Positions 20,120 through 53,608 of a stretch of DNA of 64,000 bases are shown piece by piece. A model generated the notes under the pieces. The model had not been told where the DNA came from. It worked only from the letters and a program-made list of their open reading frames with translations, and ran no database searches. Both the position numbers and the translations under genes were made by a program. This DNA is from Hyphomicrobiales bacterium (GTDB lineage: Bacteria; Pseudomonadota; Alphaproteobacteria; Rhizobiales; Beijerinckiaceae): contig JAQGJX010000089.1 of assembly GCA_028290405.1 (NCBI GenBank), positions 12 to 64,011 on the forward strand. The letters are read 5' to 3'. Numbering within the stretch: the first letter of the stretch is position 1; each line of letters opens with the position of its first letter.

Positions 20120-20149
20120 GAACATTACCGGAACAAACCCCGCTGGCAA
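20120..20149 (-). promoter_or_regulatory. Sigma70-like promoter (TTGCCA-N16-TAATGT) overlapped by an alphaproteobacterial LexA box GTTC-N7-GTTC
   Basis: Plus strand GAAC-attaccg-GAAC at 20120-20134; -10 at 20127-20122 and -35 at 20149-20144 on the minus strand. Confidence 0.8.
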
Positions 20150-20264: not shown

Positions 20265-21311
20265 ATGCAGATCGGATTATTCGACCATCTCGAGCGCAGC
20301 CCGGACAGGCCTTTGTCGACCCAGTTCGACGAGCGGCTCGAGTTCGCCGTGGCGGCGGACGACGCGGGCTTCTACGGCCTGCACGTCGCCGAACACCATT
20401 GCTCGCCGCTGAACACCATTCCGGTCCCGGGCGTGTGGCTTGCGGCGGTGGCGCGCGCCACCAAGCGCCTGCGCTTCGGGCCGCTGGTCTACCTGCTGCC
20501 GCTCTATTCGCCGCTGCGACTGGCGGAAGAAATCTGCATGCTGGACCACCTCAGCCGGGGCCGTTTCGAGTGCGGCGTGGGACGCGGCGTGTCGCCGTTC
20601 GAGCTCGCCTACCACAAGATCAAGCACGAGGATTCGCGCGACATCTTCAAGGACGCCTACGAGTGCCTGAAGGCCGCCCTGGGCAACGAGACGTTCAGCT
20701 ACGAAAGCGAGCGCTACCAGTACAAGAACGTGCCGATGCCGCTGCGCCCGTTGCAGCAGCCGTGGCCGGCGTTCTGGTACGGTTCCTCGAACGAGGAAGG
20801 CTCCATCTGGGCCGGCGAGCAGGGCATGCACTTCACCACGAACGGCCCGCCCGAGCGCGCCAAGACCAACATCGACGCGTACCGCGCCGCGCTCGCCAAG
20901 CGCGGCGGCGCTGCGCAGCCGAAGGCTGACTTCGCAGGCGGCGCGGCCATCGGCATGATGCGCCACATCGTCGTGGCGGACACCGACGCGGAAGCCGTGC
21001 GCATCGCCAAGCCCGCTCTGGAGCACCACGCGGGTTCGCTCAACTGGATCCGCAAGCTCAACGGCTCAAGCGAGTTCACCAATCGCACCAATGTGCATCG
21101 CGGCGAAAGCTTCGAGAGCTGGCGCGACATGGGCATGGTCATCGCCGGTTCGCCCGAGACCGTGGTGCGCGAGATCACCAAGCAGGTGGGCTTCACCGGC
21201 GTCAATTATCTCATCACCTACCTGTTCTTCGGCACGATGTCGGCGGCGGACGCGCACCGCTCGCTGCAATTGTTCCGCACGCAAGTGATGCCGAAGATCA
21301 AGGATCTTTAG
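20265..21311 (+). CDS. LLM-class flavin-dependent oxidoreductase (luciferase-like monooxygenase)
   Basis: AEHH, PLYSPLRLAEEICMLDHLSRGRFECGVGRG motifs. Confidence 0.9.
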   Translation: MQIGLFDHLERSPDRPLSTQFDERLEFAVAADDAGFYGLHVAEHHCSPLNTIPVPGVWLAAVARATKRLRFGPLVYLLPLYSPLRLAEEICMLDHLSRGRFECGVGRGVSPFELAYHKIKHEDSRDIFKDAYECLKAALGNETFSYESERYQYKNVPMPLRPLQQPWPAFWYGSSNEEGSIWAGEQGMHFTTNGPPERAKTNIDAYRAALAKRGGAAQPKADFAGGAAIGMMRHIVVADTDAEAVRIAKPALEHHAGSLNWIRKLNGSSEFTNRTNVHRGESFESWRDMGMVIAGSPETVVREITKQVGFTGVNYLITYLFFGTMSAADAHRSLQLFRTQVMPKIKDL

Positions 21312-28229: not shown

Positions 28230-28255
28230 GGAACCGCTCCCGCGCGGCGCTCGTT
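28230..28255 (+). promoter_or_regulatory. Sigma-EcfG promoter GGAAC-N17-CGTT
   Basis: GGAAC cgctcccgcgcggcgct CGTT, 25 nt before the PRC-barrel ATG (RBS AGGAG). Confidence 0.75.
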
Positions 28256-28280: not shown

Positions 28281-28715
28281 ATGCCGACGCAATTGCCCGT
28301 CGATCCCAATGAACACCGCCTGCGCGAAGCGGGCTCCATGGAGCTGGACCCCTCCGGAGAGGGCGTGGCGGTGGAGGAAACGGTGCGCCTCATCGCCTCC
28401 AACAAGGTGGAGGGCGCGCCGGTCTACAATGCGGCCGGCGAGGAGCTGGGAACCATCCATAACCTCATGCTCGACAAGTACACCGGGCAGGTGGCCTACG
28501 CGGTCATGCTGTGCGGCGGCTTCCTGGGACTGGGCGGAACCCACCATCCGCTCCCCTGGAAGGCCCTGAAGTACGACCCGAAGGTGGGCGGCTACGTGGT
28601 TAGCGCCGACGACCAGCGCCTGATGACCGCGCCGCGCTATTCCGCCAGCGAAGACCCCTTTGCGGATCCCCAGTTCGCCGGCCGGGTGGACGCGCATTAC
28701 GGCGAGCCGGGGTGA
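28281..28715 (+). CDS. PRC-barrel domain protein
   Basis: LIASNKVEGAPVYNAAGEELGTIHNLMLDKYTGQVAYAVM..GGFLGLG..HHPLPWKALKYD. Confidence 0.9.
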   Translation: MPTQLPVDPNEHRLREAGSMELDPSGEGVAVEETVRLIASNKVEGAPVYNAAGEELGTIHNLMLDKYTGQVAYAVMLCGGFLGLGGTHHPLPWKALKYDPKVGGYVVSADDQRLMTAPRYSASEDPFADPQFAGRVDAHYGEPG

Positions 28716-29026
28716 GCGCGGACGCCCTGCGGGAGGCCTGGCTCATCGAAATCTTCGTGCCCCTTGGCGATCCCCCGCCGAGCCTCGAGGAATTGAGGCG
28801 CACGCTGACCGAACGCTTCGGGGGCGTCACGGCCTTTGAGCGGGCGCCCGCGCGCGGCTTCTGGGCGGCCGACGACGGAAGGGTGGAGGAGGACCGGATC
28901 GTCGTGCTCGAGGTGATGGCGGACGCCTACGACGCAGCATTCTGGGGCGGCCTCAAGCGAAACCTTGAGCGAACGCTACGACAGGAGGAGGTTCTTGTCA
29001 GGGTCACGAAGACCGCACGCGTCTGA
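28712..29026 (+). CDS. Conserved hypothetical protein (104 aa)
   Basis: GTGA overlap with the PRC gene. Pattern LTERFGGVTAF.RAPA.GFW..D.IVV.EVMA..W..L.RNLE..RQEEV.VR resembles an uncharacterised family I recall from Proteobacteria. Confidence 0.75.
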   Translation: MSADALREAWLIEIFVPLGDPPPSLEELRRTLTERFGGVTAFERAPARGFWAADDGRVEEDRIVVLEVMADAYDAAFWGGLKRNLERTLRQEEVLVRVTKTARV

Positions 29027-29031
29027 TTGCC

Positions 29032-29092
29032 GAACACACAGAGAACAAAGCGCGTAACCCCCGCTGACGCAAGGGGAGAACTATTCGTGAAC
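29032..29092. promoter_or_regulatory. Two tandem LexA boxes GAAC-N7-GAAC in a convergent intergenic gap
   Basis: GAAC-acacaga-GAAC (29032-29046) and GAAC-tattcgt-GAAC (29078-29092). Confidence 0.7.
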
Positions 29093-29123
29093 GTTCCGGT
29101 CGCTGCGCTTTCCACGGCGCTTT

Positions 29124-30059
29124 TCAGGCCTTGGCGGGCGCGCCCGGAACCGGCTTTCGCCGGCGTTCCGTGACGACCAGATACAGTGACGCGGCCATGA
29201 TGAGCCCCATGCCGGCGAAGCTCCAGGGGCCGGGCGTTTCGCCGAACAGCAGCCAGCCGAGCACGGCGGCGTAGATCACGCGGGCGTAGTCCAGTGGCGC
29301 CAGCGCCGTGGCGTCGCCCATGCTCAGCCCGTGGGTGATGAGAGCTTGCCCGCCCATCCCGGTGACGCCGATGAGCGCCAGCAGAGCCAGTTCATGGCCC
29401 GTTGGGGCGATCCACGTGAAAGCCGCCGGAAGCGCGGCGAAGAACGCGTTCCAGAAGGCGTAGTAGAACATGATGACGCGCGTGGATTCGCTCGTTTGCA
29501 GGTTCTTGATCGCAAGCATCACCAGGGCGGCGAACAGCCCGCCGAACGCGCCCACGATGGCGTTCGGGTCGAACCCCTCCGTGAAGGGGCGAGCGTACAG
29601 CAGGATGCCCGCGAAGCCCACCACCGCCACCGCGACCCGGCGGAAGCCCACGACCTCCGACAGGAAGCACAGCGCCAGCGGAATCATCCAGAGCGGCCGC
29701 GAGAATTGCAGAGCCAGCGAATCCGCCAGCATCATGTGCGTGATGGTCCAGAAGAAGCAGGCGTTGCCGCCAGCCCCGACCAGCCCGCGGAAGAAATGCG
29801 CGCCCGGACGCTTCGTGCGCAGCGGCTCCATCAGGTCCGCGCGAAACACCCACAGGGCGCAGATGAACCCGACCGCGGAGCGGAAGAACAGGATCTCGAA
29901 CGGCGGCAGCCTCTGGCCGAGGTATTTCGCAAGGGCGGCCATGAGCACGAGGCCGAAGGAGCCCAGCGACACGAGCGTGACCCCGCGCGCAATCAGCGGC
30001 ATGGCCGCCCAGCGCGCGTCGATGGGGGCGCGCAGCCGCGCGGACAGGGGAAGACTCAT
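29124..30059 (-). CDS. DMT/EamA family transporter
   Basis: FEILFFRS, two EamA repeats and LAPLDYARVIYAAVLGWLLFGETP; start MSLPLS at 30059. Confidence 0.9.
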   Translation of the reverse strand: MSLPLSARLRAPIDARWAAMPLIARGVTLVSLGSFGLVLMAALAKYLGQRLPPFEILFFRSAVGFICALWVFRADLMEPLRTKRPGAHFFRGLVGAGGNACFFWTITHMMLADSLALQFSRPLWMIPLALCFLSEVVGFRRVAVAVVGFAGILLYARPFTEGFDPNAIVGAFGGLFAALVMLAIKNLQTSESTRVIMFYYAFWNAFFAALPAAFTWIAPTGHELALLALIGVTGMGGQALITHGLSMGDATALAPLDYARVIYAAVLGWLLFGETPGPWSFAGMGLIMAASLYLVVTERRRKPVPGAPAKA

Positions 30060-30188: not shown

Positions 30189-30893
30189 ATGTCGAAGCGG
30201 AGCGCGATCTGGGGAGCCTGGGCGGTGCACGCCTTCACGGCGTCGGGCGCGGCGCTCGGCCTCATGGCGCTCGAGCGGGCGTTCGAGCGCGACTTCGTGG
30301 CGTGCTTCGCATGGCTGGCGGCGGCGTTGGCGGTGGACGGGATCGACGGGTCCTTCGCCCGCGCCCTCAGGGTCAAGGAGCGGCTGCCGCACATCGACGG
30401 CGACATCCTCGACTACGTCGTGGATTACCTCACCTACGTGATCGTGCCCGCGGTGGCGTTCCTGCGCTCGGACCTGGCCCCCGCATGGCTCGACACCCCG
30501 CTGGCGCTCGCCATCGCGGCGAGTTCGGCGATCTACTTCGGCGACGCGCGCATGAAAACCGCGGACCACTGGTTCCGGGGCTTTCCGGCGTTGTGGAACG
30601 TGCTGGTCTTTTATCTCATCGTGTTCGCGCCGCCCGCCTGGGCCTGCGCGGCGTTGATCGTGGCGGCCATCGCGGCCATGTTCGCCCCCATTGTATTCGT
30701 GCATCCCATGCGGGTGACGCGGCTTCGCGCCGTCACACTCGCGGCGTTGGGGCTGTGGGCGGCCAGCGCCGCGCTGGCGCTGGCGAGCGGAATGACCCAG
30801 AGCGGTATTGCCCGCGCGGGCCTGCTGGCCTCCGCCGCTTACTTTCTGGCGCTGCCCTGGCTGACGCGCCGGGGGCTCAAGCCGGCTCCTTAA
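30189..30893 (+). CDS. pcs: Phosphatidylcholine synthase
   Basis: VHAFTASG, DGIDGSFAR..VKERLPHIDGDILDYVVDYLTYV and FRGFPALWN motifs. Confidence 0.88.
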   Translation: MSKRSAIWGAWAVHAFTASGAALGLMALERAFERDFVACFAWLAAALAVDGIDGSFARALRVKERLPHIDGDILDYVVDYLTYVIVPAVAFLRSDLAPAWLDTPLALAIAASSAIYFGDARMKTADHWFRGFPALWNVLVFYLIVFAPPAWACAALIVAAIAAMFAPIVFVHPMRVTRLRAVTLAALGLWAASAALALASGMTQSGIARAGLLASAAYFLALPWLTRRGLKPAP

Positions 30894-53143: not shown

Positions 53144-53608
53144 ATGCCGGAAATCTGGTTTTATCACCTTGTGGGGCGCAAGCTCGAAAGCGTGCTGCCG
53201 ACGCTGCTCGAGAAGGCGCTCGAACGCGAGTGGAACGTCGTCGTGCAGTTCACGTCCGACGAACGGCTCGCCGCCATGGACGAGCACCTCTACACGTGGT
53301 CCGACGAGAGCTTCCTGCCGCACGGCTCCGCGCGCGACGGCGACGCCGAGGAGCAGCCCATCTGGCTGACGCTGGGCGACGACAATCCCAACGGCGCCAA
53401 GCTGCGCATCTGCGTCGACGGGGCCCGCGCCGAGGACGCCGCCAAGGCGAGCGGCGACATGTACGACCGCATCATCCTGATCTTCGACGGCGGCGACGAG
53501 GCCGTGCTGCTGGATTCCCGTGCGCAATGGAAAGCCCTTAAGGCGGCGGGTTATGCGCTGTCCTACTACCAGCAGAACGAGAACGGCGGCTGGGACAAGA
53601 AGGCCTGA
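53144..53608 (+). CDS. holC: DNA polymerase III subunit chi
   Basis: EIWFYHL, LLEKAL, LYTWSDESFLPHG, RIILIFDG and RAQWKAL. Confidence 0.93.
   Translation: MPEIWFYHLVGRKLESVLPTLLEKALEREWNVVVQFTSDERLAAMDEHLYTWSDESFLPHGSARDGDAEEQPIWLTLGDDNPNGAKLRICVDGARAEDAAKASGDMYDRIILIFDGGDEAVLLDSRAQWKALKAAGYALSYYQQNENGGWDKKA

Follow-up and report, generated by a model that had tools for sequence, protein, structure and literature searches.

The 97-bp gap between two convergent genes of an uncultured member of Rhizobiales (Hyphomicrobiales bacterium, GCA_028290405.1, contig JAQGJX010000089.1, here termed G000) appears to hold a selectively maintained regulatory block that works at the DNA level, in which two predicted LexA operators surround a core of 25 bp and are anchored to a gene encoding an EamA transporter. 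Gating of a non-coding transcript would be the most likely function of this putative control block. All coordinates given without a locus prefix refer to the window, i.e. the stretch of 64,000 nucleotides of this contig that was analyzed, and genes were called from open reading frames, third-position GC and Pfam matches.

The gap (29027-29123) extends from the stop codon of a 104-aa gene on the plus strand (28712-29026) to that of an EamA/DMT permease gene on the minus strand (29124-30059; 311-aa product, Pfam EamA 3e-21), the orthologs of which in seven relatives have 81-85% identity. Exact plus-strand matches to GAAC-N7-GAAC are present at 29032-29046 (box 1) and 29078-29092 (box 2). Their starts are 46 bp apart, both flanking genes terminate at the gap, and there is no gene downstream of the boxes in either direction; the coordinates thus bear out what the initial annotation had said of two exact boxes at this distance in a place where both neighboring genes end. 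The 104-aa gene has no Pfam match and is the last gene of an operon with a PRC-barrel gene (28281-28715, plus strand; Pfam PRC 8e-12), whose stop it overlaps by 4 nt. It is probably co-transcribed with the PRC gene from an EcfG-type promoter. A match to such a promoter, GGAAC-N17-CGTT, was indeed found ahead of the PRC gene on the plus strand (28230-28255, 25 nt before the ATG), in line with the earlier description of the PRC operon as EcfG-driven. Copies of the 104-aa gene occur in G023 and one lake MAG; G008, G001 and G009 lack it. Among the named genomes outside the genus, the sole relative found for its product is the truncated copy in the lake MAG, an uncultured Rhizobiales, with 59% identity over residues 6-54.

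The conserved block spans 62 bp (29032-29093) and has a GC content of 0.55 as compared to 0.68 for the window. It consists of box 1, six to seven variable bases, the core, four bases, an A plus box 2 and a final G. The core (29053-29077) reads CGTAA-n-CC-n-CGC-n-G-n-C-n-CAA and contributes 16 columns that are invariant in four genomes; for the block as a whole, 33 of 63 alignment columns are invariant in these genomes.

Shuffled sequences contained 1.56 matches to GAAC-N7-GAAC per 64 kb, in rough agreement with the previous estimate of about one chance match in a stretch of this length. The entire G000 genome (4.07 Mb, 68% GC) has 97 matches, which is no excess over the 83-107 obtained for other spacings when codon-periodic spacings are excluded from the comparison. 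By chance, the genome should contain about 0.14 pairs of exact matches within 60 bp, and two pairs were observed within 120 bp. The accompanying argument that two boxes in one small gap are unlikely to be random therefore holds in part only: by itself, the pair would be suggestive but short of decisive, and its real support lies in conservation among relatives. The other two matches in the window, at 20771-20785 on the minus strand and at 53222-53236 on the plus strand, have GC-rich spacers and lie within coding sequence, one of them in a luciferase-like monooxygenase gene and the other in another open reading frame, and look like chance matches.

A pattern search recovered the block in four of the 65 genomes of the genus, i.e. 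G000, G023, G008 and G002. A fifth genome, G016, has retained only an exact GAAC-N7-GAAC that aligns with box 2. When the search was extended to 400 genomes of the order, matches occurred at no more than the level of a reversed-pattern control, and in G000 the block, core included, is present as a single copy. Among the four genomes, the block has a pairwise identity of 60-78%. Fourfold-degenerate sites of the EamA gene next to it reach 44-57%, and on both sides of the block the sequences of the relatives are unalignable. Within the boxes, the relatives are identical to G000 at 52 of 56 half-site positions (93%) and at 17 of 49 spacer positions (35%), a difference for which Fisher's test returns p = 1.5e-10, a value that is overstated owing to the shared ancestry of the genomes. 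All inner half-sites read GAAC, and the outer ones differ at the second base (GTAC, GTAC and GCAC in box 1, GTAC in box 2 of G002). Box 1 of the relatives can accordingly be written as GTAC/GCAC-N7-GAAC, and box 2 is found as AGAAC-N6-TG(A/T)ACG in G023, G008 and G002. The core is as well conserved as the half-sites and does not resemble a LexA site.

In an EamA tree, the genomes with a block or a remnant of it form a clade of eight with 100/100 support together with the block-less G001, G009 and G004. Block-bearing genomes span the base of this clade, and the block-less pair G001 and G009 is nested among them. The simplest history would be one old gain followed by several losses, in G001 and G009, in G004 and, for most of the block, in G016. 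Because of these losses the block must be regarded as dispensable. The genomes of the clade are mostly metagenome-assembled.

The box motif, written as GTTC-N7-GTTC or GAAC-N7-GAAC, is cited as the SOS box in PMC6237742 from da Rocha (2008) and Erill (2004). G000 has a single lexA gene (LexA_DNA_bind) with its own box, and exact boxes also precede recA, uvrA/ssb, comM, radA and a probable imuA, the uvrA gene having a second box on its divergent side that probably serves ssb. Further exact boxes are found at two radical-SAM genes, one of which encodes a helix-hairpin-helix domain, at a metallophosphoesterase gene and at a divergent DUF3750/DUF3072 pair; these predicted members of the regulon are located on contigs C112, C71, C66, C218 and C193 (loci L038, L044, L043, L041 and L040). 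The exact boxes of the SOS genes have A/T-rich spacers. The radA box lies inside the window at 20120 and has the flank GAACAAA in common with box 1, as had been noticed previously. With a LexA matrix of 23 columns that was built from 12 regulon sites of G000 and used to rank 2501 candidates genome-wide, box 1 reached 19.7 bits (rank 15), just above the box of lexA itself. Box 2 reached 12.6 bits (rank 42), which falls into the zone of chance hits but is about the score of the lexA box upon leave-one-out. On the same G000 matrix, the boxes of the relatives scored 2-6 bits (box 1) and 4-12 bits (box 2), and the single box of G016 remained below zero (-1). All five genomes have a T directly before the second GAAC of box 2, a base seen there in none of the 12 matrix sites.

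Nearly all SOS promoters of G000 have a clear CTTGnn -35 element with the box covering the spacer or the -10 region, and several have two boxes 19-25 bp apart. In the tandem arrangements at recA and on contig C144, GAAC reads in the direction of transcription. The recA promoter (C75:22560-22605, L045; relatives L062-L064) is composed of box A, a CTTGCG -35 element and box B, GAAC-N7-GTAC, whose GTAC half-site doubles as the start of a TACATT-like -10 element. This layout, GTAC included, is kept in G000, G008, G002 and G001, and the spacer of the second operator is free to vary. As GTAC is conserved in the second recA operator of four genomes of the clade, the GTAC-containing boxes of the block are plausible LexA sites. 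The arrangement on C144 (C144:3005-3045) combines GAAC-N7-GTAC with GAAC-N7-AAAC about 60 nt ahead of the start codon of a gene. Taking together the use of the motif in the regulon, the score of box 1 and the conservation of half-sites but not of spacers, we follow the initial annotation in considering the boxes non-random and very likely true LexA operators. That the pair as predicted is a real operator pair maintained by selection appears probable. On these comparisons, the block is an element acting at the DNA level and under purifying selection in several lineages, with the predicted footprint of alphaproteobacterial LexA sites and without a protein-coding gene as its target.

EamA is the sole constant neighbor of the block, and in each of the five genomes 8-31 nt separate the EamA stop codon from the end of box 2. 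To the left, G000 and G023 have the 104-aa gene, and in G008 the PRC gene is directly adjacent. In G002, a low-GC insert (about 50%) with a GNAT acetyltransferase gene of the toxin-antitoxin type is found in this place (L054:7700-8420); it contains a near-perfect hairpin of 44 nt followed by a T-run, which is oriented for a minus-strand RNA and located about 100 nt to the left of the block. The left side of G016 is occupied by AT-rich DNA without clear genes (L008:1-500). In the block-less G004, an HbpS-like gene lies to the left of the EamA 3' end along with AT-rich DNA devoid of clear genes (L007:1230-1495), and in G001 and G009 PRC and EamA converge without a block. In none of the eight clade genomes is the position of the block occupied by an SOS gene, the neighbors being PRC, the 104-aa gene, GNAT, the HbpS-like gene or AT-rich DNA. 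This answers the question raised at the outset of whether relatives keep the boxes or carry an SOS gene here. G002, G016 and G004 show that the site directly to the left of the block, or of the EamA 3' end, is a hot spot for insertions. In G023 (L036:1197-1505), the homolog of the 104-aa gene continues across box 1 as far as the TAA of the invariant CGTAA, where it stops, such that one operator lies within coding sequence.

A consensus scan of positions 28500-29700 detected neither a sigma-70 promoter nor an intrinsic terminator, and specifically no plus-strand terminator downstream of the block. Likewise, the scan and inspection by eye of the four-genome alignment revealed no conserved sigma-70 -35/-10 pair on either strand, which reproduces the earlier failure to identify a convincing one. 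On the plus strand, a -35-like CTGAC element is present without a -10 partner. On the minus strand, a candidate -35 element, CTTGCG (29068-29073), equals that of recA and has a TTG that is invariant in four genomes; 17 nt after it, a weak candidate -10 element, CTTTGT, can be read from the sequence (29045-29050). The latter is plausible in G000 only, the corresponding position being GC-rich in G023, G008 and G002. When the gap was compared by hand with the 12 SOS promoters of the genome, this leftward pair was the one plausible candidate, and no conserved element emerged for either direction. When the core was read as an ECF/EcfG promoter, GnAC-N17/18-CGTAA fitted the invariant columns but without the AAC that is usual in such -35 elements, and readings as a sigma-32 promoter (with CCCC as -10) or a sigma-54 promoter gave partial fits; none of these readings is supported. 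Phased half-sites in an 11-bp register were sought in the core and none was convincing.

A structured small RNA or known RNA family was ruled out. An Rfam scan of the whole window returned tRNA only, with nothing in the gap, and folds of the block on both strands in three genomes had z-scores between -0.26 and +1.58, no better than shuffled sequence. Since the fold scores are weak and an Rfam match is lacking, the element should act as DNA and not as a structured RNA. A small SOS-induced protein of the SidA, TisB or DinQ type was rejected as well. An open reading frame of 28 codons starts from a GTG within box 2 (29087-29173, plus strand) and is preceded by a Shine-Dalgarno-like GGGGAG run, and four genomes retain an (A/G)TG in this place. 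However, the resulting frames differ in length (28, 41, 17 and 24 codons), share no similarity after residue 2-3 and encode Arg-rich peptides that are not hydrophobic. Nor is the block a repeat or mobile element (REP, MITE or att): it is single copy, order-wide matches stay at control level, and the variable DNA to its left, although suggestive of such an element, contains no second copy.

We tentatively propose that the block contains a LexA-gated non-coding promoter that fires to the right and yields RNA antisense to EamA at its 3' end. In undamaged cells, LexA bound to the block would keep a weak promoter of non-canonical type, located within the core or next to it, silent. Upon DNA damage, RecA-stimulated self-cleavage of LexA would free the block, and a non-coding transcript would then begin between the boxes, head rightward across the EamA 3' end in antisense orientation and lower or truncate expression of the transporter. 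An action on EamA is favored because the block is constantly anchored to this gene. The direction of the transcript is the weakest step of the mechanism. A rightward course is suggested by EamA as the constant neighbor, by the retention of box 2 beside EamA in G016, by the unalignable left flank and by the orientation of the tandem boxes at recA and on C144. The mechanism has against it that there is no conserved -35/-10 pair and no plus-strand terminator, that the boxes of the relatives are weak, that the block has been lost repeatedly and that the conserved core could bind another protein. A role in tuning the DMT/EamA transporter during DNA damage, with the block serving either as promoter-operator of a LexA-controlled cis-antisense RNA or as an SOS-gated roadblock, is conceivable, if rather doubtful. 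Both a rightward antisense RNA to the DMT gene and a LexA roadblock had been listed initially as alternatives to a leftward transcript; they turned out to fit better than the latter, the EamA 3' end being the sole constant partner.

A LexA roadblock or insulator without any promoter, which we regard as unlikely, would consist of LexA dimers past the EamA stop that halt RNA polymerase arriving from EamA and from the convergent PRC operon; collision and antisense read-through would be limited in undamaged cells and this limitation would be lifted in the SOS response. Such a device would agree with the failure to find a promoter on either strand and with the position of box 2 at 8-31 nt past the EamA stop in five genomes, which leaves no space for a terminator. 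Moreover, neither convergent unit has an intrinsic terminator in G000, the only strong minus-strand terminator of G002 lies beyond the block, so that EamA transcripts must cross it, and G016 retains just the EamA-proximal box. The roadblock leaves the equally conserved core between the boxes unexplained, though, block-less relatives cope with the same convergent arrangement, and we know of no established mechanism of LexA roadblocks at gene ends. A LexA-repressed promoter firing leftward, with its -35 element by box 2 and its -10 and start site under box 1, comes close to the reading preferred in the initial annotation, namely an RNA antisense to the PRC/104-aa operon and possibly sense into the VOC and ElaB-like genes; its product would be antisense to the left neighbor, here the 104-aa/PRC operon. 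Evidence on the G000 minus strand is the sequence CTTGCG-N17-CTTTGT, in which CTTGCG corresponds to the recA -35 element and is placed beside a LexA box as in recA, and the invariant TTG and the strong hairpin with T-run about 100 nt to the left in G002 would fit a minus-strand RNA. We nevertheless consider this promoter decidedly unlikely and abandon the leftward preference: the -10 position is GC-rich in every other block-bearing genome (G023, G008 and G002), the left neighbor and the unconserved left flank vary by lineage and offer no conserved RNA body or target, and G016 dropped the core including the TTG and yet kept box 2.

The GAAC repeats might also merely mimic LexA boxes and serve another factor or function; the block would then be, for example, the target of a different regulator that binds direct repeats, a promoter of the ECF type (GnAC-N17/18-CGTAA) or a hot spot of recombination or insertion. 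In this direction point the core, conserved like the boxes and not LexA-like, the fixed T of box 2 that is absent from the 12 true sites, the low scores of the relatives' boxes, the foreign or low-GC DNA that G002, G016 and G004 have immediately to the left of the block, and the invariance of G-n-AC and CGTAA at an ECF-like spacing. Four GnAC/GAAC half-sites in two exact N7 pairs with free spacers are, on the other hand, the signature of alphaproteobacterial LexA, and the conserved recA operator contains a GTAC half-site. The AAC that an ECF -35 element usually requires is missing in three of the four genomes, and the core is single copy and does not exceed control level elsewhere in the 400 genomes of the order. 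We judge an unrelated factor to be about as improbable as the leftward promoter. The least probable explanation, and a very unlikely one, is a chance pair or a functionless relic of the promoter of a long-lost SOS gene. It would account for the missing target gene and the loss of the block in several lineages, and close pairs expected at about 0.14 per genome are not vanishingly rare. It is at odds with 33 invariant columns out of 63 next to EamA synonymous sites that are near saturation (44-57%) and flanks that defy alignment. Furthermore, SOS genes are absent from this position throughout the clade; for this reason it is unlikely that the boxes are simply what is left of an SOS gene lost in recent times, another of the alternatives offered at first.

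Small or non-coding units under direct LexA control in gene-free gaps are known from Escherichia coli, where tisB/istR and dinQ/agrB are SOS-controlled type I toxin/sRNA loci, and from Caulobacter, where SidA is an SOS-induced division inhibitor of 29 aa. The block is similar in its setting but differs in that its small open reading frames are unconserved in length and sequence and do not encode hydrophobic peptides. In the excludon of Listeria, an example of antisense regulation between convergent genes, a regulated transcript overlaps its neighbor; that proposed here would likewise overlap the convergent neighbor and could lower its expression, although the constant partner of the block is EamA and not the stress operon considered initially. 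Also comparable are the tandem operators of alphaproteobacterial recA and lexA, which likewise pair two boxes of this direct repeat and tolerate GTAC as a half-site. The likeness to recA extends to the CTTGCG found beside a box on the minus strand of the G000 block. In contrast to these operators, the block has no downstream gene and no conserved -10 element, and the distance between its boxes is 46 bp instead of 19-25 bp.

Nine mitomycin-induced sRNAs of Caulobacter all lack a GTTC-N7-GTTC box near the start (PMC6237742), and so there is no precedent for a LexA-boxed sRNA in Alphaproteobacteria. Orphan LexA sites are known elsewhere, since ChIP-seq of Mycobacterium tuberculosis LexA yielded peaks at two sRNA genes as well as sites without apparent regulation (PMC3381160). 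The peak at MTS1082 has an SOS box and the gene is not significantly induced by damage, and the peak at MTS2823 has no identifiable SOS box (PMC3381160). As with the block, the annotated protein gene nearest to these sites is not under their control; unlike the block, these sites were demonstrated by ChIP, while the block is a prediction from DNA sequence, and motif and phylum differ. So far, the alphaproteobacterial SOS regulon has been described almost wholly as a set of protein-coding repair and mutagenesis genes. If the proposal is correct, the block would provide the first described example in Alphaproteobacteria of a non-coding regulatory unit under LexA control, with a non-canonical promoter core between two operators. 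LexA control in this class would then extend to non-coding or 3'-end regulation, and DNA damage would be tied to membrane transport. Being small, single copy and naturally missing in sister species, the block lends itself as an easy test case, and even if LexA does not bind, the 62 bp would still constitute a conserved non-coding element.

Two exact boxes are also close together elsewhere in G000, at C209:232-314 near a contig end, where they lie on opposite strands and 68 bp apart. On the far side of EamA, G000 has a divergent 234-aa open reading frame on the plus strand (30189-30893) with a third-position GC of 0.94 and no Pfam match. This frame is missing at the equivalent position in G023 and G008, and a short-chain dehydrogenase gene on the minus strand takes its place in both genomes.
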